The notes under the pieces: model-generated
What the model was told of the DNA's origin: nothing
Seen by the model: only the letters and a program-made list of their open reading frames with translations
The model's database searches: none
Source of the DNA: Eledone cirrhosa
Taxonomy: Eukaryota
Length of the DNA: 64,000 nt
Assembly: GCA_964016885.1 (NCBI GenBank)
Contig: OZ024743.1
Span: forward strand, 249,612,001-249,676,000
Reading direction: 5' to 3'
Shown here: one piece after another, positions 1 to 53,049 of the stretch
Layout of the letters: every line of letters begins with the position of its first letter
Position numbering within the stretch: the first letter of the stretch is position 1
Program-made: the position numbers and the translations under genes

Positions 1-3000
1 CTTTGCTCACTATAAAAGCTTCACGGCACAGGCATTGCTTTATATCTGGAGATCTCTCTGCACTTGTCGTCACATGGTACCATGGGCCCAGCACTATGTG
101 TCAGTAATTGTCACAAGTGTAGTGTTTGTACCAGAGTTTTCAAGTCACTGGCTGGACTAAAAAGTCACACTCGTTCAGCGCATCGGTAGGGGTTCTCCTA
201 CATGGATATAAAGTAGTGGCCGTACTCGAAAACGAGTTGGCAGCCACCATGTATGTATGTATGTATGTATGTATGTATGTATGTATGTATGTATGTATGT
301 ATGTATGTATGTATGTATGTATGTATGTATGTTATGTATGTTATGTCAGGTCACCAGTTGGTGCTACTGGTAACATGTATCCCAGTACAACCTGTCCCAT
401 GGTCGGGTCGTTGGCGACTAAACTGGCAAACCCACCAAGGTTTCTTGGTGAGGAGGGTGACTTTGGACATCCTGCAGGACTAAAAACAAAACCTGTCAAA
501 GGGCAAAGGAGCTCTTAAGAGTCAATGGCCATCCAAAATCACCGGGAGAGATGACCCCTTAGCCTTTGTCAAGGCAGAATTCTAGGAGAAGGAAAACTCT
601 GATATAACACCTGCAACCCTGATGGTATCCAATGATGTTGACTTGTTCTTCTTTTTGGTAAATATCATCTTGGTTAAGAGAGTGGGACTGGCTTTGTGCA
701 GTGCCTTTGCTCACTATAAAAGCTTCACGGCACAGGCATTGCTTTATATCTGGAGATCTCTCTGCACTTGTCGTCACATGGTACCATGGGCCCAGCACTA
801 TGTGTCAGTAATTGTCACAAGTGTAGTGTTTGTACCAGAGTTTTCAAGTCACTGGCTGGACTAAAAAGTCACACTCGTTCAGCGCATCGGTAGGGGTTCT
901 CCTACATGGATATAAAGTAGTGGCCGTACTCGAAAACGAGTTGGCAGCCACCATGTATGTATGTATGTATGTATGTATGTATGTATGTATGTATGTATGT
1001 ATGTATGTATGTATGTATGTATGTATGTATGTATGTATGTATGTATGTTATGTATGTTATGTCAGGTCACCAGTTGGTGCTACTGGTAACATGTATCCCA
1101 GTACAACCTGTCCCATGGTCGGGTCGTTGGCGACTAAACTGGCAAACCCACCAAGGTTTCTTGGTGAGGAGGGTGACTTTGGACATCCTGCAGGACTAAA
1201 AACAAAACCTGTCAAAGGGCAAAGGAGCTCTTAAGAGTCAATGGCCATCCAAAATCACCGGGAGAGATGACCCCTTAGCCTTTGTCAAGGCAGAATTCTA
1301 GGAGAAGGAAAACTCTGATATAACACCTGCAACCCTGATGGTATCCAATGATGTTGACTTGTTCTTCTTTTTGGTAAATATCATCTTGGTTAAGAGAGTG
1401 GGACTGGCTTTGTGCAGTGCCTTTGCTCACTATAAAAGCTTCACGGCACAGGCATTGCTTTATATCTGGAGATCTCTCTGCACTTGTCGTCACATGGTAC
1501 CATGGGCCCAGCACTATGTGTCAGTAATTGTCACAAGTGTAGTGTTTGTACCAGAGTTTTCAAGTCACTGGCTGGACTAAAAAGTCACACTCGTTCAGCG
1601 CATCGGTAGGGGTTCTCCTACATGGATATAAAGTAGTGGCCGTACTCGAAAACGAGTTGGCAGCCACCATGTATGTATGTATGTATGTATGTATGTATGT
1701 ATGTATGTATGTATGTATGTATGTATGTATGTATGTATGTATGTATGTATGTATGTATGTATGTTATGTATGTTATGTATGTTATGTCAGGTCACCAGTT
1801 GGTGCTACTGGTAACATGTATCCCAGTACAACCTGTCCCATGGTCGGGTCGTTGGCGACTAAACTGGCAAACCCACCAAGGTTTCTTGGTGAGGAGGGTG
1901 ACTTTGGACATCCTGCAGGACTAAAAACAAAACCTGTCAAAGGGCAAAGGAGCTCTTAAGAGTCAATGGCCATCCAAAATCACCGGGAGAGATGACCCCT
2001 TAGCCTTTGTCAAGGCAGAATTCTAGGAGAAGGAAAACTCTGATATAACACCTGCAACCCTGATGGTATCCAATGATGTTGACTTGTTCTTCTTTTTGGT
2101 AAATATCATCTTGGTTAAGAGAGTGGGACTGGCTTTGTGCAGTGCCTTTGCTCACTATAAAAGCTTCACGGCACAGGCATTGCTTTATATCTGGAGATCT
2201 CTCTGCACTTGTCGTCACATGGTACCATGGGCCCAGCACTATGTGTCAGTAATTGTCACAAGTGTAGTGTTTGTACCAGAGTTTTCAAGTCACTGGCTGG
2301 ACTAAAAAGTCACACTCGTTCAGCGCATCGGTAGGGGTTCTCCTACATGGATATAAAGTAGTGGCCGTACTCGAAAACGAGTTGGCAGCCACCATGTATG
2401 TATGTATGTATGTATGTATGTATGTATGTATGTATGTATGTATGTATGTATGTATGTTATGTATGTTATGTCAGGTCACCAGTTGGTGCTACTGGTAACA
2501 TGTATCCCAGTACAACCTGTCCCATGGTCGGGTCGTTGGCGACTAAACTGGCAAACCCACCAAGGTTTCTTGGTGAGGAGGGTGACTTTGGACATCCTGC
2601 AGGACTAAAAACAAAACCTGTCAAAGGGCAAAGGAGCTCTTAAGAGTCAATGGCCATCCAAAATCACCGGGAGAGATGACCCCTTAGCCTTTGTCAAGGC
2701 AGAATTCTAGGAGAAGGAAAACTCTGATATAACACCTGCAACCCTGATGGTATCCAATGATGTTGACTTGTTCTTCTTTTTGGTAAATATCATCTTGGTT
2801 AAGAGAGTGGGACTGGCTTTGTGCAGTGCCTTTGCTCACTATAAAAGCTTCACGGCACAGGCATTGCTTTATATCTGGAGATCTCTCTGCACTTGTCGTC
2901 ACATGGTACCATGGGCCCAGCACTATGTGTCAGTAATTGTCACAAGTGTAGTGTTTGTACCAGAGTTTTCAAGTCACTGGCTGGACTAAAAAGTCACACT

Positions 3001-5918
3001 CGTTCAGCGCATCGGTAGGGGTTCTCCTACATGGATATAAAGTAGTGGCCGTACTCGAAAACGAGTTGGCAGCCACCATGTATGTATGTATGTATGTATG
3101 TATGTATGTATGTATGTATGTATGTATGTATGTATGTATGTATGTATGTATGTATGTATGTATGTATGTATGTTATGTATGTTATGTCAGGTCACCAGTT
3201 GGTGCTACTGGTAACATGTATCCCAGTACAACCTGTCCCATGGTCGGGTCGTTGGCGACTAAACTGGCAAACCCACCAAGGTTTCTTGGTGAGGAGGGTG
3301 ACTTTGGACATCCTGCAGGACTAAAAACAAAACCTGTCAAAGGGCAAAGGAGCTCTTAAGAGTCAATGGCCATCCAAAATCACCGGGAGAGATGACCCCT
3401 TAGCCTTTGTCAAGGCAGAATTCTAGGAGAAGGAAAACTCTGATATAACACCTGCAACCCTGATGGTATCCAATGATGTTGACTTGTTCTTCTTTTTGGT
3501 AAATATCATCTTGGTTAAGAGAGTGGGACTGGCTTTGTGCAGTGCCTTTGCTCACTATAAAAGCTTCACGGCACAGGCATTGCTTTATATCTGGAGATCT
3601 CTCTGCACTTGTCGTCACATGGTACCATGGGCCCAGCACTATGTGTCAGTAATTGTCACAAGTGTAGTGTTTGTACCAGAGTTTTCAAGTCACTGGCTGG
3701 ACTAAAAAGTCACACTCGTTCAGCGCATCGGTAGGGGTTCTCCTACATGGATATAAAGTAGTGGCCGTACTCGAAAACGAGTTGGCAGCCACCATGTATG
3801 TATGTATGTATGTATGTATGTATGTATGTATGTATGTATGTATGTATGTATGTATGTATGTATGTATGTATGTATGTATGTATGTATGTTATGTATGTTA
3901 TGTATGTTATGTCAGGTCACCAGTTGGTGCTACTGGTAACATGTATCCCAGTACAACCTGTCCCATGGTCGGGTCGTTGGCGACTAAACTGGCAAACCCA
4001 CCAAGGTTTCTTGGTGAGGAGGGTGACTTTGGACATCCTGCAGGACTAAAAACAAAACCTGTCAAAGGGCAAAGGAGCTCTTAAGAGTCAATGGCCATCC
4101 AAAATCACCGGGAGAGATGACCCCTTAGCCTTTGTCAAGGCAGAATTCTAGGAGAAGGAAAACTCTGATATAACACCTGCAACCCTGATGGTATCCAATG
4201 ATGTTGACTTGTTCTTCTTTTTGGTAAATATCATCTTGGTTAAGAGAGTGGGACTGGCTTTGTGCAGTGCCTTTGCTCACTATAAAAGCTTCACGGCACA
4301 GGCATTGCTTTATATCTGGAGATCTCTCTGCACTTGTCGTCACATGGTACCATGGGCCCAGCACTATGTGTCAGTAATTGTCACAAGTGTAGTGTTTGTA
4401 CCAGAGTTTTCAAGTCACTGGCTGGACTAAAAAGTCACACTCGTTCAGCGCATCGGTAGGGGTTCTCCTACATGGATATAAAGTAGTGGCCGTACTCGAA
4501 AACGAGTTGGCAGCCACCATGTATGTATGTATGTATGTATGTATGTATGTATGTATGTATGTATGTATGTATGTATGTATGTTATGTATGTTATGTCAGG
4601 TCACCAGTTGGTGCTACTGGTAACATGTATCCCAGTACAACCTGTCCCATGGTCGGGTCGTTGGCGACTAAACTGGCAAACCCACCAAGGTTTCTTGGTG
4701 AGGAGGGTGACTTTGGACATCCTGCAGGACTAAAAACAAAACCTGTCAAAGGGCAAAGGAGCTCTTAAGAGTCAATGGCCATCCAAAATCACCGGGAGAG
4801 ATGACCCCTTAGCCTTTGTCAAGGCAGAATTCTAGGAGAAGGAAAACTCTGATATAACACCTGCAACCCTGATGGTATCCAATGATGTTGACTTGTTCTT
4901 CTTTTTGGTAAATATCATCTTGGTTAAGAGAGTGGGACTGGCTTTGTGCAGTGCCTTTGCTCACTATAAAAGCTTCACGGCACAGGCATTGCTTTATATC
5001 TGGAGATCTCTCTGCACTTGTCGTCACATGGTACCATGGGCCCAGCACTATGTGTCAGTAATTGTCACAAGTGTAGTGTTTGTACCAGAGTTTTCAAGTC
5101 ACTGGCTGGACTAAAAAGTCACACTCGTTCAGCGCATCGGTAGGGGTTCTCCTACATGGATATAAAGTAGTGGCCGTACTCGAAAACGAGTTGGCAGCCA
5201 CCATGTATGTATGTATGTATGTATGTATGTATGTATGTATGTATGTATGTATGTATGTATGTATGTATGTATGTATGTATGTATGTATGTATGTATGTTA
5301 TGTATGTTATGTCAGGTCACCAGTTGGTGCTACTGGTAACATGTATCCCAGTACAACCTGTCCCATGGTCGGGTCGTTGGCGACTAAACTGGCAAACCCA
5401 CCAAGGTTTCTTGGTGAGGAGGGTGACTTTGGACATCCTGCAGGACTAAAAACAAAACCTGTCAAAGGGCAAAGGAGCTCTTAAGAGTCAATGGCCATCC
5501 AAAATCACCGGGAGAGATGACCCCTTAGCCTTTGTCAAGGCAGAATTCTAGGAGAAGGAAAACTCTGATATAACACCTGCAACCCTGATGGTATCCAATG
5601 ATGTTGACTTGTTCTTCTTTTTGGTAAATATCATCTTGGTTAAGAGAGTGGGACTGGCTTTGTGCAGTGCCTTTGCTCACTATAAAAGCTTCACGGCACA
5701 GGCATTGCTTTATATCTGGAGATCTCTCTGCACTTGTCGTCACATGGTACCATGGGCCCAGCACTATGTGTCAGTAATTGTCACAAGTGTAGTGTTTGTA
5801 CCAGAGTTTTCAAGTCACTGGCTGGACTAAAAAGTCACACTCGTTCAGCGCATCGGTAGGGGTTCTCCTACATGGATATAAAGTAGTGGCCGTACTCGAA
5901 AACGAGTTGGCAGCCACC
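1..5918 (+). repeat. Tandem array (~8.4 units, 684-725 bp) of a non-autonomous bipartite RTE-derived element, each unit ending in a (TATG)n tail
   Basis: Identical ORF-track entries recur at 126, 830, 1546, 2271, 2955, 3671, 4396, 5080 and 5796. The unit middle matches the 5' UTR of the RTE LINE at ~7877-8082. The unit end gtggccgtactcgaaaacgagttggcagccaccat matches the LINE 3' end atggccatactcgataacgagggggcagccatcat (~11431-11465). Confidence 0.9.
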
Positions 5919-6611
5919 ATGTATGTATGTATGTATGTATGTATGTATGTATGTATGTATGTATGTATGTATGTATGTATGTATGTATGTATGTATGTAT
6001 GTATGTATGTATGTATGTATGTATGTATGTATGTATGTATGTATGTATGTATGTATGTATGTATGTATGTATGTATGTATGTATGTATGTATGTATGTAT
6101 GTATGTATGTATGTATGTATGTATGTATGTATGTATGTATGTATGTATGTATGTATGTATGTATGTATGTATGTATGTATGTATGTATGTATGTATGTAT
6201 GTATGTATGTATGTATGTATGTATGTATGTATGTATGTATGTATGTATGTATGTATGTATGTATGTATGTATGTATGTATGTATGTATGTATGTATGTAT
6301 GTATGTATGTATGTATGTATGTATGTATGTATGTATGTATGTATGTATGTATGTATGTATGTATGTATGTATGTATGTATGTATGTATGTATGTATGTAT
6401 GTATGTATGTATGTATGTATGTATGTATGTATGTATGTATGTATGTATGTATGTATGTATGTATGTATGTATGTATGTATGTATGTATGTATGTATGTAT
6501 GTATGTATGTATGTATGTATGTATGTATGTATGTATGTATGTATGTATGTATGTATGTATGTATGTATGTATGTATGTATGTATGTATGTATGTATGTAT
6601 GTATGTATGTA
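5919..6611 (+). repeat. Pure (TATG)n microsatellite, ~690 bp, tail of the last array unit
   Basis: Directly visible; the MYVC/HTYI ORFs are artefacts of it. Confidence 0.97.
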
Positions 6612-8149: not shown

Positions 8150-8334
8150 TACTTTTTTCTTTTTTTTTCCCCAATTCAATGATGTTCTAGAACAATGTAA
8201 AAGAGATAATTGGCAATTTAGGTTCTGGAACAAAAAAGATCATTGGCAATAAGGGCAGGGGCCCCAAGTTATCACAACCTGGGCCCGCTCGTCATCGTGC
8301 CATTGTAATAGAGCCAAACAAGGCATTTAGTCTT

Positions 8335-9255
8335 GGCTGCTGGAACGTACGGACGCTGCTTGACAGGGATTCCTTGGAGCGTCCTGAACGAAGGACCGCT
8401 CTTGTTGCAAAGGAGCTTCGACGTTACGATCTTGACATCGTGGCTTTATCTGAGACGAGGTTAGCTGGAGATGGTCATCTTACGGAATTTTGTGGAGAAT
8501 ATACATTCTTCTGGAAAGGAAGAGATGAAGGAACCAGAAGAGAGGCTGGGGTAGGATTTGCTGTTAAGACTGTACTTGTCAATAAATTAGAAGAATTCCC
8601 AGTAGGGATTAGTGAGCGTCTTATGTCCATGAGAGTTCCGCTGGACAGAGGAAGATATGCTACCCTGGTGAGTGTGTATGCTCCAACTACGAATTCTGTC
8701 GATGAAGAAAAACTGTCCTTTTACCATGCCTTGAAAGGTGTTCTAAGAAATATCCCTCAGGCAGACAAAGTCATCGTGGTTGGTGACTTTAATGCTAGAG
8801 TGGGTAGGGATTTTAACACATGGAATGTAATCGGAAGGCATGGGGTGGGAAAGTGTAACAGCAATGGTATGCTCCTGCTGCAGATGTGTGAGGAGCTGGA
8901 TCTGTGTGTTACCAACACCATGTTCCAACAAAAGAACAAATTCAAGACCACATGGATGCATCCTGCATCTAAGGAATGGCATCTTTTGGACTACGTCCTA
9001 GTCAGGATGCGTGACAGACAGGATGTGCAGTGTGTTCGTGTTCTTCGTGGAGCTGAGTGCTGGACGGACCACCGCCTAGTACGCGCAAAAGTGAAACTAA
9101 TCACCAAACGTAAAATCCGGGCTCCTGGTGTTACCCTGCCCAAAAGATTGAATGCTGCTCGTCTTAAGGATAAAAATGTGAAGAGGACATTGGAAGAAGA
9201 GATGCAGGCTGCAGATCTTGGTGAGGATTGGCCGACCCTTAAAAAGTCGGTTTAA
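8335..9255 (+). pseudogene. RTE LINE AP-endonuclease domain
   Basis: ORF 8374-9255 with canonical APE motifs; an in-frame stop separates it from the RT portion. Confidence 0.9.
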
Positions 9256-9279
9256 GATGTAGGCAGGCGTGTTCTGGGA

Positions 9280-10344
9280 TTGGTGCAGAGAAAACATCAG
9301 GACTGGTTTAATGAGAATGATGTACATATAGAAGACTTGTTGGCTGATAAGAGGCGTGCTCTGTCACGCTACTTGACGGCAAAACCACAGGAGAGGAATA
9401 CGTTGCATGAGGAGCTCAGGGATGTAAAATCACGTGTTAGGCGGAGTCTTTCTCAGATGAAGGATCAGTGGTGGAGTGAGAAGGCTGGTGAGATACAAAC
9501 TGCGTCTGATTCCAATAACACAAAGCTGTTGTACAGTCTCTTGCGTGAGGTTTATGGACCGTCTTCTTCTCTGGTGACACCGCTTCGCAGCAAGGATGGC
9601 AAAGAACTTCTTCGTGACTCACAGGGAATTCTACGAAGGTGGCGAGAGCACTTTGATGATCTTTTGAATCAGCCGTCTGTCGTCAGTGAAGATTTCCTCA
9701 ATCTCATTCCAGAAAGTCCTGTGAAAGTAGCTCTCGCAGAACCTCCGACGCTTGTGGAGGTTGCAGTGGCTATTTCGAAGCTGAACAGTGGAAGATCTCC
9801 ATGTATGGATGGCATACATGCTGAGCTCCTACAATATGGTGGTGAGAGACTCCTGCAACATCTGCACTCTTTGTTTGGAAGGATATGGGCTAATGAATCC
9901 GTACCTGAGGACTGGAGAGATGCAGTAATGGTGGTCTTGTACAAGGGAAAGGGTAACAGGAATGATTGTGGGAACTACAGAGGTATATCATTGCTTTCTG
10001 TCGTAAGGAAAGTTTTATGTAGGGTGCTTCTGGACCGTCTGCTGACACACATTGCAGATTGTGTTCTTCCTGAAAGTCAATCTGGTTTTCGTGCTGGACG
10101 CGGCACTACTGATATGATCTTCTCAGCTAGACAGCTCCAGGAGAAGTGCATGGAACAAGGCTTGGATCTGTATCAGGTTTTTGTCGATCTGACAAAGGCT
10201 TTCGATACTGTCAACAGAGAGGCATTATGGAAGGTTCTCCAGAAACTTGGTTGCCCTGATAAGTTCCTTGCTTTAGTTAGGTCTTTCCATGACGACATGA
10301 AGGCTTGGGTTAATGTTGGAGGTAACATGTCGACACCACCTTAA
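9280..10344 (+). pseudogene. RTE LINE reverse transcriptase, N-terminal half; catalytic YADD region deleted
   Basis: RT motifs present up to FHDDMKAWV, then deletion/frameshift. Confidence 0.9.
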
Positions 10345-10746
10345 GCAATTGGAGCGTTTCCATCAGATGTGTCTCAGACGGATCCATGGCGTTCACTGGA
10401 GGGACCACATCAGTGATGTCGAGATTTTGGAAAGCTCTATGTGTGACAGTATAGAAGCTCTTGTGCTTAAGCAACGACTCCGTTGGAGTGGTCACCTTGC
10501 CAGGATGAAGGATTCTAGAATACCAAAACAACTCTTTTATGGAGAGTTGGTTAAAGGAAAACAACCGCCACATAAACCAAAAAAGAGGTATAAGGATTCC
10601 TTGAAAGCCTCTCTGAAAGACGCTAACATCTCTGCTGATACATGGGAAAATATTGCTGCTGATCGTAATAAATGGAGAAAGACTGTATATGAGGGAAAGT
10701 TGCCTTTGAGGCATCTCGAATCGCACACGAGAAAGTAAAGCGGGAT

Positions 10747-11103
10747 GTGAGGAAGGGCATTGCTGTTGCACTTCCAGACGGCGAGGGTCCTCCTATGGTG
10801 CTGACATGCAGCGTATGTGCGAGACTCTGCCTAAGCAAAGCTGAACTCGAAAGTCATCTTCGCAGTCATAAAGTAAGACCAGTAGTTGACTACCAGGCTG
10901 CTGTTGGAGATGCTACTCATCATGCTTGCCAAACATGTGGTAGAGAATGTAAATCAGCAGGAGGGCTCAAGCGACATGCAAAAGTACACGAACTCCAACC
11001 ACAGCCGACTATTCCCAGTGAATGTTTTGGTTGCCGACTCTGTGCAAGACATTGTAGATCATTGGCTGGGCTAAAAAGCCACATTCGATCGCAGCACTGT
11101 TAG
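10747..11103 (+). pseudogene. RTE LINE C-terminus with three C2H2 zinc fingers
   Basis: CSVC..HLRSH, CQTC..HAKVH, CRLC..HIRSQH. Confidence 0.85.

Positions 11104-15217: not shown

Positions 15218-15220
<3 letters not shown>
12457..15220 (-). repeat. Tandem array of ~743 bp unit (3.7 copies) with one hammerhead per unit, flanked by (TA)n
   Basis: Unit starts at 12457, 13201, 13944 and 14687; TA tracts on both sides. Confidence 0.92.
12644..12767 (-). ncRNA. Type I hammerhead ribozyme with ~100 nt stem II (copy 1 of 4 in the 743 bp array)
   Basis: Minus strand reads TTCCA-CTGATGA-T-TTATAAG...CTTATAA-T-GAAA-C-AATT-GTT|TGGAA. Palindromic stem III ACAATTGT; GUU triplet. Confidence 0.75.
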
Positions 15221-15254
<34 letters not shown>

Positions 15255-15277
15255 ATTATATATATATATATTATATA

Positions 15278-15329
<52 letters not shown>

Positions 15330-15331
<2 letters not shown>

Positions 15332-17527
15332 CAAGGTTTAGCAAATAATGAAAAAGTTTCAAAATAAATTTTAAAAAATTGACTTTACCTACTATAGTTA
15401 CCTTTACCGATCGGTTTCGAATCCCAAAAATAAACGGAGACCATACGGCCTTCGTTGCAAAGAAAGATTCTCGTCAGAAGGTTCTTTTCATTCGAAGAAT
15501 ATAAAATTCTTGAATTTAAATTACGAACTAGCGCTATCCAAAACTGTTCCTGAGATGAGAGTGAATGAAGTGGAATCAATTTTTTCAAGGGCCGAAGTAA
15601 AGATAGAGGCAGAGGGAGGTAGGTCAAACCGGCCGCAACTATCACTAGCAGCAGTCGGAACAACCCAATTTGTCTCTCAACAATAGCGGAGAGTAGTAAT
15701 AATAGGATATGTGTTCCTTCACGCATAAGGCGCTAAGGGACGCATGTATTGTCCAACCAAATGCCAATGTGGTTCAATGGCAGGTTAATAAATTAACGAG
15801 CCAGAACATATATAAACAAGGTTTAGCAAATAATGAAAAAGTTTCAAAATAAATTTTAAAAAATTGACTTTACCTACTATAGTTACCTTTACCGATCGGT
15901 TTCGAATCCCAAAAATAAACGGAGACCATACGGCCTTCGTTGCAAAGAAAGATTCTCGTCAGAAGGTTCTTTTCATTCGAAGAATATAAAATTCTTGAAT
16001 TTAAATTACGAACTAGCGCTATCCAAAACTGTTCCTGAGATGAGAGTGAATGAAGTGGAATCAATTTTTTCAAGGGCCGAAGTAAAGATAGAGGCAGAGG
16101 GAGGTAGGTCAAACCGGCCGCAACTATCACTAGCAGCAGTCGGAACAACCCAATTTGTCTCTCAACAATAGCGGAGAGTAGTAATAATAGGATATGTGTT
16201 CCTTCACGCATAAGGCGCTAAGGGACGCATGTATTGTCCAACCAAATGCCAATGTGGTTCAATGGCAGGTTAATAAATTAACGAGCCAGAACATATATAA
16301 ACAAGGTTTAGCAAATAATGAAAAAGTTTCAAAATAAATTTTAAAAAATTGACTTTACCTACTATAGTTACCTTTACCGATCGGTTTCGAATCCCAAAAA
16401 TAAACGGAGACCATACGGCCTTCGTTGCAAAGAAAGATTCTCGTCAGAAGGTTCTTTTCATTCGAAGAATATAAAATTCTTGAATTTAAATTACGAACTA
16501 GCGCTATCCAAAACTGTTCCTGAGATGAGAGTGAATGAAGTGGAATCAATTTTTTCAAGGGCCGAAGTAAAGATAGAGGCAGAGGGAGGTAGGTCAAACC
16601 GGCCGCAACTATCACTAGCAGCAGTCGGAACAACCCAATTTGTCTCTCAACAATAGCGGAGAGTAGTAATAATAGGATATGTGTTCCTTCACGCATAAGG
16701 CGCTAAGGGACGCATGTATTGTCCAACCAAATGCCAATGTGGTTCAATGGCAGGTTAATAAATTAACGAGCCAGAACATATATAAACAAGGTTTAGCAAA
16801 TAATGAAAAAGTTTCAAAATAAATTTTAAAAAATTGACTTTACCTACTATAGTTACCTTTACCGATCGGTTTCGAATCCCAAAAATAAACGGAGACCATA
16901 CGGCCTTCGTTGCAAAGAAAGATTCTCGTCAGAAGGTTCTTTTCATTCGAAGAATATAAAATTCTTGAATTTAAATTACGAACTAGCGCTATCCAAAACT
17001 GTTCCTGAGATGAGAGTGAATGAAGTGGAATCAATTTTTTCAAGGGCCGAAGTAAAGATAGAGGCAGAGGGAGGTAGGTCAAACCGGCCGCAACTATCAC
17101 TAGCAGCAGTCGGAACAACCCAATTTGTCTCTCAACAATAGCGGAGAGTAGTAATAATAGGATATGTGTTCCTTCACGCATAAGGCGCTAAGGGACGCAT
17201 GTATTGTCCAACCAAATGCCAATGTGGTTCAATGGCAGGTTAATAAATTAACGAGCCAGAACATATATAGACAAGGTTTAGCAAATAATGAAAAAGTTTC
17301 AAAATAAATTTTAAAAAATTGACTTTACCTACTATAGTTACCTTTACCGATCGGTTTCGAATCCCAAAAATAAACGGAGACCATACGGCCTTCGTTGCAA
17401 AGAAAGATTCTCGTCAGAAGGTTCTTTTCATTCGAAGAATATAAAATTCTTGAATTTAAATTACGAACTAGCGCTATCCAAAACTGTTCCTGAGATGAGA
17501 GTGAATGAAGTGGAATCAATTTTTTCA
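15330..17527 (-). repeat. Left (antisense) arm of inverted 485 bp hammerhead concatemer, ~4.5 units
   Basis: Period 485 (ORF track 15385, 15870, 16355, 16840, 17325). Begins directly after (TA)n. Hammerheads on the minus strand at 15400-15482 and every 485 bp. Confidence 0.95.
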
Positions 17528-19575
17528 TATATGTTCTGGCTCGTTAATTTATTAACCTGCCATTGAACCACATTGGCATTTGGTTGGACAATACATGCGT
17601 CCCTTAGCGCCTTATGCGTGAAGGAACACATATCCTATTATTACTACTCTCCGCTATTGTTGAGAGACAAATTGGGTTGTTCCGACTGCTGCTAGTGATA
17701 GTTGCGGCCGGTTTGACCTACCTCCCTCTGCCTCTATCTTTACTTCGGCCCTTGAAAAAATTGATTCCACTTCATTCACTCTCATCTCAGGAACAGTTTT
17801 GGATAGCGCTAGTTCGTAATTTAAATTCAAGAATTTTATATTCTTCGAATGAAAAGAACCTTCTGACGAGAATCTTTCTTTGCAACGAAGGCCGTATGGT
17901 CTCCGTTTATTTTTGGGATTCGAAACCGATCGGTAAAGGTAACTATAGTAGGTAAAGTCAATTTTTTAAAATTTATTTTGAAACTTTTTCATTATTTGCT
18001 AAACCTTGTTTATATATGTTCTGGCTCGTTAATTTATTAACCTGCCATTGAACCACATTGGCATTTGGTTGGACAATACATGCGTCCCTTAGCGCCTTAT
18101 GCGTGAAGGAACACATATCCTATTATTACTACTCTCCGCTATTGTTGAGAGACAAATTGGGTTGTTCCGACTGCTGCTAGTGATAGTTGCGGCCGGTTTG
18201 ACCTACCTCCCTCTGCCTCTATCTTTACTTCGGCCCTTGAAAAAATTGATTCCACTTCATTCACTCTCATCTCAGGAACAGTTTTGGATAGCGCTAGTTC
18301 GTAATTTAAATTCAAGAATTTTATATTCTTCGAATGAAAAGAACCTTCTGACGAGAATCTTTCTTTGCAACGAAGGCCGTATGGTCTCCGTTTATTTTTG
18401 GGATTCGAAACCGATCGGTAAAGGTAACTATAGTAGGTAAAGTCAATTTTTTAAAATTTATTTTGAAACTTTTTCATTATTTGCTAAACCTTGTTTATAT
18501 ATGTTCTGGCTCGTTAATTTATTAACCTGCCATTGAACCACATTGGCATTTGGTTGGACAATACATGCGTCCCTTAGCGCCTTATGCGTGAAGGAACACA
18601 TATCCTATTATTACTACTCTCCGCTATTGTTGAGAGACAAATTGGGTTGTTCCGACTGCTGCTAGTGATAGTTGCGGCCGGTTTGACCTACCTCCCTCTG
18701 CCTCTATCTTTACTTCGGCCCTTGAAAAAATTGATTCCACTTCATTCACTCTCATCTCAGGAACAGTTTTGGATAGCGCTAGTTCGTAATTTAAATTCAA
18801 GAATTTTATATTCTTCGAATGAAAAGAACCTTCTGACGAGAATCTTTCTTTGCAACGAAGGCCGTATGGTCTCCGTTTACTTTTGGGATTCGAAACCGAT
18901 CGGTAAAGGTAACTATAGTAGGTAAAGTCAATTTTTTAAAATTTATTTTGAAACTTTTTCATTATCTGCTAAACCTTGTTTATATATGTTCTGGCTCGTT
19001 AACTTATTAACCTGCCATTGAACCACATTGGCATTTGGTTGGACAATACATGCGTCCCTTAGCGCCTTATGCGTGAAGGAACACATATCCTATTATTACT
19101 ACTCTCCGCTATTGTTGAGAGACAAATTGGGTTGTTCCGACTGCTGCTAGTGATAGTTGCGGCCGGTTTGACCTACCTCCCTCTGCCTCTATCTTTACTT
19201 CGGCCCTTGAAAAAATTGATTCCACTTCATTCACTCTCATCTCAGGAACAGTTTTGGATAGCGCTAGTTCGTAATTTAAATTCAAGAATTTTATATTCTT
19301 CGAATGAAAAGAACCTTCTGACGAGAATCTTTCTTTGCAACGAAGGCCGTATGGTCTCCGTTTATTTTTGGGATTCGAAACCGATCGGTAAAGGTAACTA
19401 TAGTAGGTAAAGTCAATTTTTTAAAATTTATTTTGAAACTTTTTCATTATTTGCTAAACCTTGTTTATATATGTTCTGGCTCGTTAATTTATTAACCTGC
19501 CATTGAACCACATTGGCATTTGGTTGGACAATACATGCGTCCCTTAGCGCCTTATGCGTGAAGGAACACATATCC

Positions 19576-19580
<5 letters not shown>
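17527..19580 (+). repeat. Right (sense) arm of inverted 485 bp hammerhead concatemer, ~4.2 units
   Basis: Reverse complement of the left-arm unit (ORF track 17614, 18099, 18584, 19069); ends in (TA)n. Confidence 0.95.
17858..17940 (+). ncRNA. Type I hammerhead ribozyme (representative of 9 copies in the 485 bp array)
   Basis: ACCTT-CTGACGA-GAATCT...GGATTC-GAAA-C-CGATCG-GTA|AAGGT. Palindromic stem III ACCGATCGGT; predicted cleavage after 17935. Confidence 0.85.
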
Positions 19581-19614
<34 letters not shown>

Positions 19615-19749
19615 CTAAATATATATATATATATAAATCTAAATATATATATATATATATATATAAATCTAAATATATATATATATATAAATCTAAATAT
19701 ATATATATATATATATAAATCTAAATATATATATATATATATATAAATC

Positions 19750-19796
<47 letters not shown>

Positions 19797-19853
19797 CTAA
19801 ATATATATATATATATATATAAATCTAAATATATATATATATATATATAAATC

Positions 19854-19895
<42 letters not shown>

Positions 19896-19900
19896 TACAT
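19581..19900. repeat. (TA)n tract punctuated by repeated AAATCTAA
   Basis: Directly visible compound microsatellite/minisatellite. Confidence 0.9.
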
Positions 19901-20084
19901 ACATACATATATATATAAATATACATACATATATATATATAAATATACATACATATAAATCTACATACATACATATATACATACATACATTTACGTATGT
20001 ATATAGCTATGCATTTATACATTTGTATATATACATGCATTTATATTTAAGTGTGTAAGGTTATATATATATATATATATATTT

Positions 20085-20330
20085 ATGCAGTGTGACAAGA
20101 AGCTTGTTTCCCAACCACATATTTCCGGGTTCAGTCCCACTGCCCAGGCCGACCAAAGCCCTGTGAGTGGATTTGATAGATCGAAACTAAAAAAAGCCCG
20201 TCGTATATATGTATATATGTCTGTGTGTGTCTTTGCGTTTGTGTTTGCCCTCCCACCAATCCTTGTTGGTTTGTTGACGTCCCCATAACATACGAAGGTG
20301 GTGCTCCAGCATGGCGTAGTCCAGAGACAG
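20085..20330 (+). mobile_element. Degenerate SINE-like fragment (second family)
   Basis: B-box-like ccgggttcagtccc followed by ggccgaccaaagcc.tgtgagtggatttg; family assignment from memory only. Confidence 0.4.
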
Positions 20331-22413: not shown

Positions 22414-23406
22414 AAGACAATAAATTTACTTTATATGATTTTTATTCAAACGTCTATGTTTTATTTTTTGTTTATTTGATATAATAAATACTTTTTAAGC
22501 TTATTTTTTTTTTATATCTGAACTTCATTTGAATATATAAAATTTAATTAGCGTAAAGAAATTTTTACTTATGTGATAGGGTTCAGGAAAGACACCATAA
22601 GTAATACTAAAATGCTCCAACAAATGTTGCTTTGTCCCCCTTACATTTTTAAGGCAAACGAGGCCCCTGGAAAAGAGCAACATTATTCACTGACCCGTTC
22701 ATCACCGTGATCGGCTTGACCTCGATACTTCAGCTCATTCTTACTAACATTCAGTTTGCTTGACCCCATCTTATCTTCATTGCATTTCCACATCATTTAT
22801 TCTATAGCTAGGTTGTTGCTATTCCTATATAAACTGACTGTTTATACTACGATCAAGTCTTGTTATAGCCTTGCGTTTAAGGAAGTGCTTTTGTAGTCTT
22901 CAACAGTCATCTATTATAATTGCAGCACCATTACAAGAATATCACAGTGATGCATTAAGTTAAGGGCGATAATTTGAGTAACTCTGACTAATAAATAATG
23001 TCTTAACTTAGTATTATCGTGTCTTATCACTACGTGCTTAATTGATGAATTCCATTTCAAAATAGCACATTACTAGTCATTCTTGCATTAAGTTCTCTTG
23101 AACTCGTTGCCTCGTTGATCCTTTCTTGAGTCTGCCACCTTAATTCCCTCAAGCTAAGTTATTACTATCATACATGAAAGACTGGTTAATCTTCATATAT
23201 AACTTGTCTCAACTTGGTTAATTAATGACAGTATTTGTCTTTTTCATTGCAGTTTTGTTTATTACAAAGTGTTATTCCAGAACATTACTTGAAACTTTAT
23301 CATACTGGAACAGGACTCATTATAGTAAGTTCCTTATACATAATTTTATAGGCTTATATAGGCAAATCTTTGCGTAACTTTACCAAACACATTCGCTAAA
23401 CAGAAA

Positions 23407-25194
23407 ATGGCCTCAGCAATGAAGAAAAAATGTAGGCAGTACAGCGTTGATTACTTACGGTTCGGATTCATCCCATCGCCGTCGAACCACCTGTCACCCA
23501 TGTGTTTAATTTGCAAGGAGTCCTTTTCGAATGAGGCGATGAAGCCATCGCGTTTCAGTAGACACTTGGAGGTGAGGCACCCCGATAAGAGATATAAAGA
23601 TTTAGCATACTTTCAGTCTCTTAGGGACCAATTCCAGAAAACAACACTAATTTCTTCTGCCTTTTCAAAAGTTGAAGCTTCAAATGTTGATGGACTTGTC
23701 GCATCTTACAATATTGCCAACATAATCGCAAAGTGCGGCAAGCCCCATTCCTTGTGTGAAACATTGGTAGTCCCTGTCATCTCAGAAGTTCTTTCAACAG
23801 TACTACGACAGAACCCCTTAAATACCTTGAAATGTATTCCGTTGAGTAACGACTCAATAAGGAGACGCATCGACGAAATGGCGGAAAATGTTGAACAACA
23901 ATTATGCAACATCTTGAAATCGACACAATTTGCTTTGCAACTTGATGAAAGCACACTTTCCGGGAATCAGTCCTTACTACTGGGATACGTGCGATTTTCC
24001 CACCAAAACGAAATGCACGAGGAGCTTCTCTTCACTCTGAATCTAGCCACAGATACTAAAGGTGCCACGATCTTTGAATCTGTCAAGGGATACCTCGAAG
24101 TAAAAGAGATACCTCTTAACAATATTGTATCATGTGCTACGGACGGCGCAAGAGCAATGGTCGGCCAACATAAGGGTTTCGTCTCTCTTCTGACGAGGGA
24201 AAATCCATCTGTATTTGCTGTTCATTGTGTCATTCATCGACAACACTTGGCTACGAAGAAACTCAGCGAGCCGCTGAGCAAGTCTTTGCAGGTAGTCATT
24301 GATGTCATCAATTATATCAAACGCCATGCCCTCAATGAACGAATTTTCCGGCAACTGTGCGAAGATAATGACGAAGAATTCGTCGAGTTGCTTCTTCATA
24401 CTGAAGTGAGGTGGCTTTCAAAGGGCAAGTGCCTTACTCGCTTCTTTAAACTGTTCGACTCTATCATTGAGTTTCTTCGAGGACGCAACACAGAACTATA
24501 TAAAAAAAACCTCGATGTGAGGCAAGACTGTGCCTACCTCGCCGACATCTTTGACAAATGCAATAGTCTCATTATGGCTTTGCAGGGGGAGAAGATCACC
24601 TTGTTTAAAGCAAGGAATGCTGTGAAAATATTCCTGGCCAAATTGAAAGTCATCGAAAGGAATCTTTGTCGACGGGAATTCTATAATTTTCCTAGTGTCG
24701 CCAATGTTTCAAACATTGTAAGCGATGACCAACTGCAAATTTATACCGCGCACCTCCGTGCACTACAAGACAACACGAGAGAACGGTTTGTCGACCTTTT
24801 GCAGATGGACATCCCAATGTGGATAGCAGATCCCTTCATAGCCAACGTCGATGATCTCGACGTTAAATTTCAGGAAGAATTAATTGAACTTCAGACAGAT
24901 GACATTATCAAAAGGAAATTTTCCAAAATAGGTGAACCCCTTTTTTGGATGCAAGAGGAAATTCAGCGACGATTTCCACTTCTACATGCAGAGGCTAAGA
25001 GATTTGCTTTGCCTTTTCCTAGCTCATACTTAGTCGAGAGGGGGTTTGGCGTTGTTTCCAGACTGCATAGTAAGGCTCGCAACCGCTAGAATGTGATTGC
25101 ACGTGGAGATCTCCGGCTACAGCTCACAAAAATCCAGCCTGACGTCAAAGAGTTAGCTAAACTCCATGACCATGAAGCTGAAGGGTCCCATTGA
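23407..25194 (+). pseudogene. hAT (Buster/Charlie, ZBED5/SCAND3-like) transposase with one premature stop at 25087
   Basis: BED-like CLIC..H..H, LQLDEST, CATDGA, HCVIHRQHL, HTEVRWLSKG and SSYLVERGF. Read-through gives ..RGDLRLQLTKIQPDVKELAKLHDHEAEGSH* ending at 25194. Confidence 0.9.
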
Positions 25195-34554: not shown

Positions 34555-34912
34555 ACACACACACACACACACACACTTATATATATATGCATATATATAT
34601 ATGTATATATATATAGTTTTGCGAGGTTTTTTATATGAAATCGTGTGTCGAAACAGATATTGTTATATTTGGGGAGGGTCATATTTGCGTAATATTGCCA
34701 GAATTAATAACAGAACACACTCACTGTTTGGTTGGTTTTCGCTTCTCGCTGTCTTTTATATATATATATCTGCGATCTAACTTACTCGGTAAGTTAGATC
34801 GCAGATATATATATATAGACTTACCTACGACACTGACTACCTAGACAGCCATGACCTTAGATGTTTCTGCCCTAGTAGACCTATAAGAGGTAGACCCCCC
34901 ACCATAACCTCA

Positions 34913-36364
34913 ATGGCTAAAAAGACTCCCATAGGAAGGTGGATTGGGTGGACCAAAGCTATACGGACCCCCCAAAACACTGATCAGGTAAGAAAAATGG
35001 TCGCACATGCAATAGGGGCTAGTATCAAAACTACCCTAAAGGGCCACATATTTAAGTTCAATGAGAAAATCTACACCCAAAATGAGGGAGCAGCCATCGG
35101 CGTCAGCATACCTGGCGATGTTGCCAACCTTTTCATGGTATGGTGGGAAAGGAGACTTAAAGATCTCCTTAATGAAAGCTCCATAGACCTCATCATGTAC
35201 TCTCGTTATGTAGACGATATCAATATAGTTATAAGAACACCCCCACTAGAGAGCACTAACAAGTTTGATTTAGAACGTAGCACGATGGAAAGCATCCAGC
35301 AGATAGCTAATTCCATACACCAGAGTATAACTGTAACTATAGACTTCCCTTCCAAACACCCTAACAATAGACTACCTGTATTAGACACAGAACTCTGGAT
35401 TAACACTATAGACGAGAGAGCCCAAATTCTCCACTCACACTATGCTAAACCCATGGCCTCCAAATACCTGATACTCAAAAACTCAGCAATGTCCAGTAGT
35501 GCTAAGTTTAATATTCTGATCGCAGATTTGGTACGAGTGATGAAGAATGTGTCCAGCATGTGCGACCCAACAGAAATGGAAGGACACATCCAACACTTCA
35601 TCAACCGCATGCAGTTCTCTGGCTACAACCAAAGAGACAGAGTCAGAGTATACGAAGGAGCCATGGAAAAGTATAAGACCCTCATAGAACTGGACATGAA
35701 AGGAATTTGCCCACTATACAGGAGCAAATCATGGAATAGCTTAGATAGGGCTAGACATAAGATAGGGAAGGCCACATCATGGTACGACAACCAGAGATAT
35801 CAGAGTGTCATGTTTGTGGACGCCACCCCTGGAGGGAAATTAGCTAACCAGTGTAGAAAGGCCCTGAGAAAGACCCACTTAAAAATAAAGGTGGTAGAAA
35901 AGCCAGGAACCACCATAAAATCCCTGATCAGCAAAACCTACCCTTTTAAGAAAACCCACTGTACCAATAGGAAATGTATCATATGTAAGGTGAACCCCCG
36001 GATAAACTGTAAAACTAGAAACGTAGTCTATAGCATAAGATGTACAGAGGGTACTTGCAGAAACACGACAACAACATACATAGGTGAGACAGCTCGTAGC
36101 ATAGGTGAAAGGATAGACCAACACTGGGGGGAACTAAAAGGACGAAAAAACGGGTCAGTACTATACGAACATGCTAGACAACATCATGACGGTAACATAG
36201 ACAACATAGAAATTAGAATAATATCTAAACATAGGAATGACCCAGCAGATAGGCAAATCAGAGAGGCCAGTGAAATAGAAATTAGAAGACCAAAGCTAAA
36301 CAGAAAGAATGAGTGGAACAACAACAACACCCAAACAAACAACACTGACCTAAGAGAAGTATAA
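34913..36364 (+). CDS. Penelope-like RT (C-terminal half), Cys linker and GIY-YIG endonuclease; 483 aa uninterrupted
   Basis: FKFNEKIYTQNEGAAIG, RYVDDI, LPVLD, HYAKP, C-x4-C-x2-C linker, NVVYSIRC...YIGETARSIGERIDQH...REASEI...LN. Neptune versus Naiad subclade not resolved. Confidence 0.88.
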   Translation: MAKKTPIGRWIGWTKAIRTPQNTDQVRKMVAHAIGASIKTTLKGHIFKFNEKIYTQNEGAAIGVSIPGDVANLFMVWWERRLKDLLNESSIDLIMYSRYVDDINIVIRTPPLESTNKFDLERSTMESIQQIANSIHQSITVTIDFPSKHPNNRLPVLDTELWINTIDERAQILHSHYAKPMASKYLILKNSAMSSSAKFNILIADLVRVMKNVSSMCDPTEMEGHIQHFINRMQFSGYNQRDRVRVYEGAMEKYKTLIELDMKGICPLYRSKSWNSLDRARHKIGKATSWYDNQRYQSVMFVDATPGGKLANQCRKALRKTHLKIKVVEKPGTTIKSLISKTYPFKKTHCTNRKCIICKVNPRINCKTRNVVYSIRCTEGTCRNTTTTYIGETARSIGERIDQHWGELKGRKNGSVLYEHARQHHDGNIDNIEIRIISKHRNDPADRQIREASEIEIRRPKLNRKNEWNNNNTQTNNTDLREV

Positions 36365-36636
36365 ATAAATAAGTAAATTAAATTAAATAAAATAAGATAA
36401 ATAAATACATACACAAGCACATAAACACACACTAGTCACCCAGCAGACACAACACTATACACACTAGTCACACATCACACATAACACTATACACACACGC
36501 AAACGCATGCGCAAAGAAGACAAAATAAAATAAGATAAACAAACAAGCAAATAAATAAAAAAATATATAGACAGACTGAACAAAAAAAATGGCGTAGACA
36601 TACAACACAACAGGAGGAACAATGAATATAACACCA

Positions 36637-36680
36637 CTGACGATGTTGCAGATGTGCAACGAAAGATTTATGTAAACTAT
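36637..36680 (+). ncRNA. Possible hammerhead core in the 3' UTR of the Penelope-like element
   Basis: CTGACGA-T-GTTGCA-GATG-TGCAAC-GAAA; stem II is perfect, stems I and III are ambiguous. Confidence 0.45.
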
Positions 36681-36904
36681 ATATATATGTGTTTGTCTAT
36701 ATTGTATCTGTATTATTTTTGACCGCCGGTCAGTCAATGGCAACATTGAGGACCGAGTAAGTTAGATCGCAGATATATATATATAAAAGACAGCGAGAAG
36801 CGAAAACCAACCAAACAGTGAGTGTGTTCTGTTATTAATTCTGGCAATATTACGCAAATATGACCCTCCCCAAATATAACAATATATATATATATGTATA
36901 TATA

Positions 36905-41238: not shown

Positions 41239-41246
<8 letters not shown>

Positions 41247-44200
41247 AATAACGAAACGAAATTAAATTTCGTTTCGTTTGTAACTCACTTTTGTATGACT
41301 GACGCTTAAACAATTAAGTTAAAGATGTACATCCATATATGTATACTGAAATACTAGTATGTATATGAATACACACACGTATACATATGTAGATGTACCA
41401 AGTTTTTTCACTGGTCACTTTACTGTGAGTGGCCAGCTATTCTGTATGTAAACACACAGACAAACCGGTTTTTAGAGTCATACTGGTTTTTGAGGAAACA
41501 CCTTTCCTCTATTCTCCAGAAAGCCAGACAAGGAATATTGAACTAGTTTCGTTGTTGTTACAACTCATCAGCAATATTTACCTATCTTCCGGCCTCTCTA
41601 GAGAATCGTAAAAGCACATATCGTTATATGCTTTTTCTATGAAAATTAGTAGTGGGCAGACTAACTTGCATAGAGTGTGAGTAAGTACCGGTTCAACGGA
41701 GACGATAAAAACAAATAACGAAACGAAATTAAATTTCGTTTCGTTTGTAACTCACTTTTGTATGACTGACGCTTAAACAATTAAGTTAAAGATGTACATC
41801 CATATATGTATACTGAAATACTAGTATGTATATGAATACACACACGTATACATATGTAGATGTACCAAGTTTTTTCACTGGTCACTTTACTGTGAGTGGC
41901 CAGCTATTCTGTATGTAAACACACAGACAAACCGGTTTTTAGAGTCATACTGGTTTTTGAGGAAACACCTTTCCTCTATTCTCCAGAAAGCCAGACAAGG
42001 AATATTGAACTAGTTTCGTTGTTGTTACAACTCATCAGCAATATTTACCTATCTTCCGGCCTCTCTAGAGAATCGTAAAAGCACATATCGTTATATGCTT
42101 TTTCTATGAAAATTAGTAGTGGGCAGACTAACTTGCATAGAGTGTGAGTAAGTACCGGTTCAACGGAGACGATAAAAACAAATAACGAAACGAAATTAAA
42201 TTTCGTTTCGTTTGTAACTCACTTTTGTATGACTGACGCTTAAACAATTAAGTTAAAGATGTACATCCATATATGTATACTGAAATACTAGTATGTATAT
42301 GAATACACACACGTATACATATGTAGATGTACCAAGTTTTTTCACTGGTCACTTTACTGTGAGTGGCCAGCTATTCTGTATGTAAACACACAGACAAACC
42401 GGTTTTTAGAGTCATACTGGTTTTTGAGGAAACACCTTTCCTCTATTCTCCAGAAAGCCAGACAAGGAATATTGAACTAGTTTCGTTGTTGTTACAACTC
42501 ATCAGCAATATTTACCTATCTTCCGGCCTCTCTAGAGAATCGTAAAAGCACATATCGTTATATGCTTTTTCTATGAAAATTAGTAGTGGGCAGACTAACT
42601 TGCATAGAGTGTGAGTAAGTACCGGTTCAACGGAGACGATAAAAACAAATAACGAAACGAAATTAAATTTCGTTTCGTTTGTAACTCACTTTTGTATGAC
42701 TGACGCTTAAACAATTAAGTTAAAGATGTACATCCATATATGTATACTGAAATACTAGTATGTATATGAATACACACACGTATACATATGTAGATGTACC
42801 AAGTTTTTTCACTGGTCACTTTACTGTGAGTGGCCAGCTATTCTGTATGTAAACACACAGACAAACCGGTTTTTAGAGTCATACTGGTTTTTGAGGAAAC
42901 ACCTTTCCTCTATTCTCCAGAAAGCCAGACAAGGAATATTGAACTAGTTTCGTTGTTGTTACAACTCATCAGCAATATTTACCTATCTTCCGGCCTCTCT
43001 AGAGAATCGTAAAAGCACATATCGTTATATGCTTTTTCTATGAAAATTAGTAGTGGGCAGACTAACTTGCATAGAGTGTGAGTAAGTACCGGTTCAACGG
43101 AGACGATAAAAACAAATAACGAAACGAAATTAAATTTCGTTTCGTTTGTAACTCACTTTTGTATGACTGACGCTTAAACAATTAAGTTAAAGATGTACAT
43201 CCATATATGTATACTGAAATACTAGTATGTATATGAATACACACACGTATACATATGTAGATGTACCAAGTTTTTTCACTGGTCACTTTACTGTGAGTGG
43301 CCAGCTATTCTGTATGTAAACACACAGACAAACCGGTTTTTAGAGTCATACTGGTTTTTGAGGAAACACCTTTCCTCTATTCTCCAGAAAGCCAGACAAG
43401 GAATATTGAACTAGTTTCGTTGTTGTTACAACTCATCAGCAATATTTACCTATCTTCCGGCCTCTCTAGAGAATCGTAAAAGCACATATCGTTATATGCT
43501 TTTTCTATGAAAATTAGTAGTGGGCAGACTAACTTGCATAGAGTGTGAGTAAGTACCGGTTCAACGGAGACGATAAAAACAAATAACGAAACGAAATTAA
43601 ATTTCGTTTCGTTTGTAACTCACTTTTGTATGACTGACGCTTAAACAATTAAGTTAAAGATGTACATCCATATATGTATACTGAAATACTAGTATGTATA
43701 TGAATACACACACGTATACATATGTAGATGTACCAAGTTTTTTCACTGGTCACTTTACTGTGAGTGGCCAGCTATTCTGTATGTAAACACACAGACAAAC
43801 CGGTTTTTAGAGTCATACTGGTTTTTGAGGAAACACCTTTCCTCTATTCTCCAGAAAGCCAGACAAGGAATATTGAACTAGTTTCGTTGTTGTTACAACT
43901 CATCAGCAATATTTACCTATCTTCCGGCCTCTCTAGAGAATCGTAAAAGCACATATCGTTATATGCTTTTTCTATGAAAATTAGTAGTGGGCAGACTAAC
44001 TTGCATAGAGTGTGAGTAAGTACCGGTTCAACGGAGACGATAAAAACAAATAACGAAACGAAATTAAATTTCGTTTCGTTTGTAACTCACTTTTGTATGA
44101 CTGACGCTTAAACAATTAAGTTAAAGATGTACATCCATATATGTATACTGAAATACTAGTATGTATATGAATACACACACGTATACATATGTAGATGTAC

Positions 44201-47200: not shown

Positions 47201-47611
47201 TCTAGAGAATCGTAAAAGCACATATCGTTATATGCTTTTTCTATGAAAATTAGTAGTGGGCAGACTAACTTGCATAGAGTGTGAGTAAGTACCGGTTCAA
47301 CGGAGACGATAAAAACAAATAACGAAACGAAATTAAATTTCGTTTCGTTTGTAACTCACTTTTGTATGACTGACGCTTAAACAATTAAGTTAAAGATGTA
47401 CATCCATATATGTATACTGAAATACTAGTATGTATATGAATACACACACGTATACATATGTAGATGTACCAAGTTTTTTCACTGGTCACTTTACTGTGAG
47501 TGGCCAGCTATTCTGTATGTAAACACACAGACAAACCGGTTTTTAGAGTCATACTGGTTTTTGAGGAAACACCTTTCCTCTATTCTCCAGAAAGCCAGAC
47601 AAGGAATATTG
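41239..47611 (-). repeat. Left (antisense) arm of inverted 467 bp hammerhead concatemer, ~13.6 units
   Basis: Period 467 (ORF track 41429 to 47500). Starts after (TA)n. Hammerheads on the minus strand at 41534-41578 and every 467 bp. Confidence 0.96.
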
Positions 47612-52400: not shown

Positions 52401-52413
52401 ACAATAATAATAA

Positions 52414-52925: not shown

Positions 52926-53049
52926 AAAAACAGCACAAAAAATAATGATAGATAAATGTCACATAAATCGCCCTAAAACTTATTTTTATTTTTTATTTTT
53001 TATTTTTTATTTTTTATTTATTTATTTATTTATTTATTTTTTTTCGTTC

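Follow-up and report, generated by a model that had tools for sequence, protein, structure and literature searches.

Which reaction writes a non-coding tandem repeat into TA-rich DNA as two head-to-head arms, and is its template defined by the ribozyme that each repeat unit carries? This question is raised by an inverted array of a 485-bp unit at positions 15330-19581 of a 64,000-nt stretch of the genome of Eledone cirrhosa (assembly GCA_964016885.1, contig OZ024743.1, positions 249,612,001 to 249,676,000 of the forward strand; the whole stretch is called the window hereafter, and positions refer to it). The role of the hammerhead ribozyme in Penelope-like elements (PLEs) is stated as unclear by Craig et al. 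(2021; PMC8557442). A circle-templated cycle has long been proposed (PMC7229834; PMC4209133), and one in vitro system found cleavage dispensable (PMC11167929).

The 485-bp repeat is, with high confidence, a non-long terminal repeat (non-LTR) retrozyme, that is, a non-autonomous PLE, present here as a young and real insertion. With less certainty, it is considered probable that a Penelope-like reverse transcriptase (RT) made this non-coding insertion in TA DNA from one cut, probably circular RNA monomer, starting at two fixed sites, and that the locus became in turn the donor for three other arrays. Published Penelope features already include the inversion, the tail at one end and the targeting of TA; what is new in this locus is that three private variants are fixed in three other arrays, split in the way that the predicted cut monomers would split them. 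If two neighbouring cut monomers of this donor did found such arrays as RNA circles, there would be genetic evidence from a living animal for hammerhead cleavage as the step that sets the template of rolling-circle retrotransposition in animals. Because the donor is named and its monomers are marked, the cleavage question becomes testable by sequence, namely by comparing the borders of daughter haplotypes with the cut site.

An inverted array of hammerhead repeats at TA targets

Tandem Repeats Finder and direct comparison resolve the array into two head-to-head arms between TA runs, with 4.53 and 4.24 copies of the unit at 99.6-100% identity. Left-arm and right-arm units are exact reverse complements, so the inverted array of 4.5 + 4.2 copies described in an earlier, sequence-only reading of the window is borne out. 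Unit positions (q) are numbered on the ribozyme strand, q1 being window position 18013. Both arms point outwards, and their sense 5' ends meet at the centre (q226 on the left, q1 on the right) with one A in common. The TA runs are abutted by the unit word TATATAT (q484-490) on one side and by TATTATTA (q109-116) on the other. Only four substitutions occur in the 4,252 bp of array, all of them T>C on the sense strand: q483 (17270), q383 (18880), q469 (18966) and, in the next copy, q21 (19003). With 485 bp and 38% GC, the unit has the retrozyme trait of non-coding, low-GC tandem repeats of a few hundred bp. There is no stop-free frame of 120 aa in 15330-19581, and the unit lacks the open reading frame (ORF) for RT and GIY-YIG endonuclease that marks an autonomous PLE. 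No promoter was identified in the array by a sigma-70 promoter scan, a model which is not relevant to an animal.

The repeat belongs to a dispersed family in which arm ends fall at two fixed sites separated by 114 nt, site A (q484-485) and site B (q114). In the genome (G000, 3.0 Gb), 1901 family candidates were found, and 40 loci, not chosen by their ends, were scored. Further loci comprised 82 on contigs C1 and C2 chosen by their A end, 16 chosen by their B end, and one more of the youngest subfamily. Genome-wide, there are 354 exact site-A/TA junctions and 78 site-B/TA junctions, the latter on the forward strand only, since the gap multiplies the reverse-strand counts. Both TA flanks and inversions, which the sequence-only reading expected at other loci, were found among the 40: TA-rich DNA adjoins 54/54 arm 3' ends (each flank with at least 8 of 13 TA/AT steps), and 14 loci are two-armed, always head-to-head. 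Single-arm loci (26/40) end at A in 25 cases and at B in one. The two-armed loci consist of 11 A+B, 2 A+other and 1 B+B pairs, with no A+A pair at all, against 6.9 expected under independent arms (P 7e-5, 14 two-armed loci). Likewise, among simple two-armed loci chosen by their A end, the second arm ends at B in 34/38 and at A in one (five complex rows were omitted and one duplicated locus was counted once). The 114-nt tail is present at one outer end only. Arms reach up to 10.1 units in length, and centre junctions are mostly blunt or have 1-7 common bases. Among the first 100 loci, arm 5' ends clustered at q451-q3 in B arms (15/46) and at q208-229 in A arms (13/88); these clusters had been picked after the fact and were rejected, as 39 further loci gave 3/22 (P 0.25) for B arms and 1/39 for A arms.

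Sites A and B both lie at TA words in predicted unpaired linkers. It had been suggested that the outer ends stop at TA-like words which could anneal to the TA target; the words are indeed there, but annealing alone does not choose the ends. Because the unit's other TA words (TATAT at q310 and TATA at q417) are never arm ends in any locus mapped, site choice is likely set by position or RNA structure, with the TA words fixing the exact base.

The same geometry is found in a coding element of the window, a 5'-truncated RT + GIY-YIG element at 34616-36883 with an inverted 5' piece, inserted in TA DNA. Its last 164 residues occur in at least 150 copies that are 100% identical. Full copies of its family have a 1217-aa ORF with DKSG, YVDD, CX4CxxC and YIGET motifs and an Asn-rich insert, a layout which, as predicted from sequence, is that of the Neptune/Nematis type described in PMC8557442, in a very young and abundant family. 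Copies end at one TA word or 45-60 nt beyond it, and the inverted pairs seen join one of each. Because Pfam gave no family on either the window fragment or the 1217-aa ORF and a PDB search returned two weak RT matches only (E 0.05-0.14), the Penelope-like call rests on motifs. The 485-bp repeat is assigned as a non-LTR retrozyme because the A/B geometry recurs in this element, whose family is a candidate kind of helper for the repeat. Furthermore, several PLE traits are present in the repeat itself: (i) a partial tandem with an inverted copy, in 14/40 loci; (ii) TA bias; and (iii) a one-sided tail which, at 114 nt, is longer than the published 30-40 bp. The window also contains an array of a 467-bp hammerhead unit, which was said to have the same polarity and a different sequence; the polarity is the same, and the two units have no similarity beyond 12-14-nt chance matches (best E 1.3). 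The proposal that two families with one geometry point to a shared insertion mechanism is supported, this geometry being equal to the published Penelope-like signature (PMC8557442).

Each unit carries a type I hammerhead at q331-413, with the predicted cut after GTA at q408. It consists of (i) stem I, ACCTT/AAGGT; (ii) the core, CTGACGA; (iii) stem II, GAATC/GATTC, with an extension; (iv) GAAA; and (v) the 10-nt palindrome ACCGATCGGT as stem III. The core and the three stems are present in 9/9 hammerhead-bearing copies of the locus, and stem I, core and extended stem II are exactly those first read from the letters. A type I descriptor matches 1/3000 dinucleotide-shuffled units; Rfam at gathering score gave no match for a hammerhead. 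Covariation, by which the proposed ribozyme was to be judged, was analysed in 11 hand-picked variants including sister families at 73-85% identity. The stems covary: 7/21 pairs are altered on both sides, 94.3% of cells pair, and the score was reached by 0/500 shuffles and by none of the slid controls, figures that give support rather than a probability since the rows are related. In the sister families, the stem III palindrome is replaced by other palindromes. Its predicted energy is -16.6 kcal/mol as a self-duplex vs. -1.9 kcal/mol as a hairpin, energetics which match the dimer-active metazoan hammerheads of PMC4209133. In the predicted fold of the circular monomer, stem I has a probability of 0.

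Several related loci deserve a description of their own. Older sister families with 73-85% identity, the same A/B ends and compensatory hammerhead changes are found at L095, L196, L206 and L218-L247, and one of them has 2624 candidates. Another TA-inserted, inverted, hammerhead-bearing family (L119:170-1000 and L209:2550-3170) has a 3' hairpin that resembles q412-470 of the 485-bp unit (80% over 57 nt), and at least eight further type I hammerhead families were detected by descriptor in the flanks of L031-L217. At L138:7790-7890, where an inverted junction lies beside site A, there are about six repeats of a 9-10-nt segment of the unit, as though the RT had stuttered on a short part of its template (telomerase-like reiteration). 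Finally, L203 and L204 are an identical two-armed insertion found twice on C2, at places separated by 0.6 Mb; a duplication, either segmental or in the assembly, is the likely cause.

Template homogeneity, a candidate donor and rival explanations

Median divergence is 0.2% within an arm (70 loci), 0.34% from arm to arm (48 loci) and 3.1% between loci. Variants specific to one locus are fixed there, in every copy of either arm, as for instance one found in 11/11 copies of L041, and within-arm differences are nearly all private. The sense-strand excess of T>C among private variants (18 vs. 6 A>G) is not significant (P 0.06) and is not claimed.

The youngest subfamily comprises 74 marked unit copies at 16 loci, all of which were examined; variants were searched in the whole genome as exact patterns, which cover near-identical copies. 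The variant q383C occurs genome-wide only in one copy of the present locus and in 4/4 copies at C4:36.82 Mb. In turn, q469C occurs only at the present locus, at C12:11.02 Mb (4 copies) and at C1:361.82 Mb (2 copies). These same three loci carry q21C, which is also present in one diverged copy (79-93% identity), where it is treated as a separate mutation. Cutting at the predicted positions 18420/1, 18905/6 and 19390/1 would leave q383C by itself in one monomer and put q469C and q21C together in the following one; these are the two daughter haplotypes. Of 608 possible 485-nt windows containing any variant, 172 give a combination that was seen and 362 hold all three variants. The chance of the observed split is 0.28 in a single event; it falls to 0.08 if two independent events are counted and to 0.02 if there were three.

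From these haplotypes, the present locus is likely to have been the donor for the three other arrays. The simplest reading is that the locus would have been transcribed and cut into monomers, each of which was copied repeatedly; therefore, a circle, or repeated jumps onto the same monomer, would be needed. A reverse direction of transfer, or DNA circles, would be less economical. About as likely as not is a more specific form of this reading, in which two neighbouring ribozyme-cut monomers of the right arm would each have become an RNA circle and founded homogeneous arrays elsewhere, a Penelope-type enzyme pair priming one circle at two fixed sites for two-armed insertions.

The proposed mechanism would proceed as follows: (i) hammerheads, paired by way of the palindromic stem III, would cut a tandem transcript; (ii) ligation would close the monomer into a circle, whose ribozyme has a predicted misfold; (iii) a GIY-YIG/RT protein would nick both (TA)n strands, strand one being primed at A and, in roughly one event out of three, strand two being primed on the same RNA at B; (iv) each RT would circle the RNA for a variable length, up to 10 units; and (v) the two complementary DNA (cDNA) ends would be joined, giving head-to-head arms. 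Strict L1-type twin priming was tried and rejected: at the present locus, the 5' end coincides with the priming site of the other arm (q1), but the closeness of B-arm 5' ends to A was not reproduced in the further loci (3/22, P 0.25).

The alternative that survives best is the same Penelope-driven insertion from an uncut linear multimeric transcript, with the ribozyme as a passenger and with the variants common to the three loci due to template switching or gene conversion into the present locus. It is unlikely. In a multimer made from this locus, any given variant would be present in a single copy, whereas in the three arrays every copy has it (4, 4 and 2 copies); differences within arms are nearly all private rather than mosaics of known haplotypes; and import would need two rare haplotypes to be set side by side.

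Amplification at the DNA level is less probable still. It could take place through a one-unit DNA circle (recombination, rolling-circle replication and insertion) or through unequal crossover after insertion, the latter being invoked for satellite growth in bioRxiv 10.64898/2026.07.22.740005. Homogeneous arrays and fixed variants would then be explained without RNA, and a haplotype border outside the cut site is compatible with the data at a chance of 0.02-0.08. Nevertheless, the repeat and the coding RT/GIY-YIG element are alike in that their sense 3' ends are fixed, their 5' ends vary, their targets are TA DNA and an A end is paired with a B end; both arms of an inversion carry the same haplotype; and a DNA crossover would have no reason to respect the cut site.

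A last rival keeps the element as real but takes its shared variants for an assembly or polishing artefact, or its inversion for a simple fold-back of one cDNA. In its favour, the 100% identity of units at different loci allows reads to mis-map, several homopolymer indels of one base are seen at L044 and L041, and the centre junction was bridged by none of the listed public contigs (of unknown kind and uninformative). Yet it is highly improbable, as adjacent variants would need two different donor loci, the locus has 4.3 kb with junctions of its own, and fold-back cannot yield 4.53 units ending at A together with 4.24 ending at B, neither arm containing the other.

Insertion from a cut monomer has, in any case, a number of points against it. 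Regarding the helper, no autonomous element homologous to the unit was found, and no PLE frame continues from the arms in about 170 family loci. The unit and the window PLE family have no sequence in common in 30 loci of that one family, a comparison which took in a single family of a genome with 36,956 PLE-like candidates, mostly outside it. Regarding the template, 2/77 multi-copy arms (L052 and L248) have variants in a subset of their copies, a pattern that a single monomer circle leaves unexplained, and arm 5' ends are not piled up at the cut site, nor reproducibly anywhere. The donor trace consists of one donor and two or three events (0.02-0.08), and it does not fix the direction. A second donor search, by q369T, gave one fixed array and two diverged copies, with no heterogeneous donor; similarly, none of the 16 loci of the youngest subfamily is a donor for q268T, which is fixed in L041. 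Finally, as regards the ribozyme, the minimum-energy fold of the isolated hammerhead sequesters the core (z -0.78), cleavage is reported in 1/9 predicted dimers (bioRxiv 10.64898/2026.07.22.740005), and in vitro ribozyme cleavage was unnecessary for insertion, with no reads ending at the cut (PMC11167929).

Features of the window

The coordinates of the array, its flanks and the candidate helper are collected in Table 1.

Table 1. Features of the inverted 485-bp array and its surroundings, in window coordinates.
Feature	Position	Strand	Remarks
(TA)n target DNA, left flank	15218..15329		sequence
Left arm, 4.53 units	15330..17527	-	sense 5' end q226 (17527); sense 3' end site A (q483-485, 15330)
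Left-arm hammerheads, five	stem I starts 17422, 16937, 16452, 15967, 15482	-	predicted
Private T>C, q483	17270		left arm
Centre junction	17527..17528		5' ends of both arms joined, one base common
Right arm, 4.24 units	17528..19581	+	sense 5' end q1; 3' end site B (q114)
Type I hammerhead (stem I, core, extended stem II, palindromic stem III)	18343..18425	+	predicted cut 18420/18421
Other right-arm hammerheads, three	starts 17858, 18828, 19313	+	
Predicted cut-to-cut monomer with T>C 18880 (q383) only	18421..18905	+	haplotype of all 4 copies at G000:C4:36.82 Mb
Predicted cut-to-cut monomer with T>C 18966 (q469) and 19003 (q21)	18906..19390	+	haplotype of arrays G000:C12:11.02 Mb and C1:361.82 Mb
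114-nt 'tail' from site A to site B (q1-q114)	19468..19581	+	one outer end only
(TA)n-rich target DNA, right flank	19582..20086		
5'-truncated RT + GIY-YIG Penelope-like element	34616..36883	+	context outside the array; lies in TA DNA; inverted 5' piece with a tail longer by 45 nt; a helper of this kind is a candidate

The 467-bp hammerhead array occupies 41239-49952 and has 13.7 + 5.0 copies, the right arm being exactly 5.0 units long. Its outer ends are about 71 nt apart in unit coordinates, and its hammerhead is minimal, with a short palindrome. At the beginning of the window (1-6611), a tandem array is formed by units of about 710 bp, each with an (ATGT)n run and with a higher-order period of 2125 bp; this array ends in 693 bp of perfect (ATGT)n. 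The stretches 8191-11103, 23362-25089 and 51127-55897 hold an APE-RT long interspersed nuclear element (LINE) with C-terminal zinc fingers, a hAT-like transposase frame, and fragments of a further non-LTR RT. The transposase frame is presumably of the SCAN/Buster type.

Relation to known systems

In L1 twin priming, the inversion point is the second priming site. As in that process, the head-to-head arms described here would come from two primings on one RNA; in contrast, the inversion point equals a priming site at the present locus (right arm, q1) but not generally, and the overlap of the arms extends through many units.

For retrozymes, the literature searched yielded neither an analysis of donors and daughters nor an A+B rule; older Penelope papers (Pyatkov, 2004; Evgen'ev & Arkhipova, 2005; Arkhipova, 2006) and supplementary material (PMC7229834, Fig. 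S9; bioRxiv 10.64898/2026.07.22.740005) may bear on novelty. The A+B rule provides a concrete model for inverted, one-tailed insertions, whose origin has been called undefined in the literature. Furthermore, a 485-nt non-coding RNA copied into multi-kilobase tandem DNA at TA repeats would be a minimal substrate for studying the reaction.

Animal retrozymes were described by Cervera and de la Pena (2020; PMC7229834), who demonstrated circles in coral, mussel and axolotl and proposed a cycle from cut monomer to circle to tandem cDNA made by a PLE RT; a circle-templated cycle is proposed in PMC4209133 too. Like those retrozymes, the present repeat is dispersed and has non-coding tandem units of a few hundred bp, a GC content below 50% and one type I hammerhead per unit. 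Unlike them, it is two-armed in 14/40 loci with fixed A/B ends and TA targets, the word 'inverted' being absent from the consulted text of PMC7229834. Its unit is slightly larger than the 150-450 bp given there, and circles, which that work showed, are here a prediction.

Li, Clavereau and Pollet (bioRxiv 10.64898/2026.07.22.740005) linked animal retrozymes to the pseudo-LTRs (pLTRs) of PLEs, with homology in 24/57 Xenopus families. Both there and here, tandem type I hammerhead repeats occur alongside PLEs, and the present array has the two or more successive units bearing a complete hammerhead by which that work calls an element 'active'. In contrast to those 24 families, no homologous autonomous element was found here. 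Ends, inversions and donor-daughter pairs are not analysed in the portions of that preprint consulted.

Among coding elements, the endonuclease-containing (EN+) PLEs described by Craig et al. (2021; PMC8557442) have an inverted 5'-truncated copy, a 30-40-bp tail at one end and (TA)n targeting. Their Neptune/Nematis type resembles the 485-bp repeat in its partial tandems, the inverted 5'-truncated copy at the 5' end, the one-end tail, the (TA)n bias and the hammerhead in the repeat. The differences are that the present repeat has no ORF, that its tail is 114 nt long and that both its arms are multi-unit arrays.

A further comparison is with Poseidon PAc of Anolis (Frangieh et al., 2024; PMC11167929), whose PLE protein nicks and extends both strands in vitro, with two internal RNA start sites that match the tail. 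In both systems, the tail is delimited by two internal start sites of the RT, nicking and extension involve the two target strands (here, according to the proposed mechanism), and targets are AT-rich. But while the Poseidon start sites lack homology to the target and serve on either strand, and insertion there can do without cleavage, sites A and B of the present repeat are TA words, one of each is used per two-armed insertion, and the split of the variants points to cut monomers.

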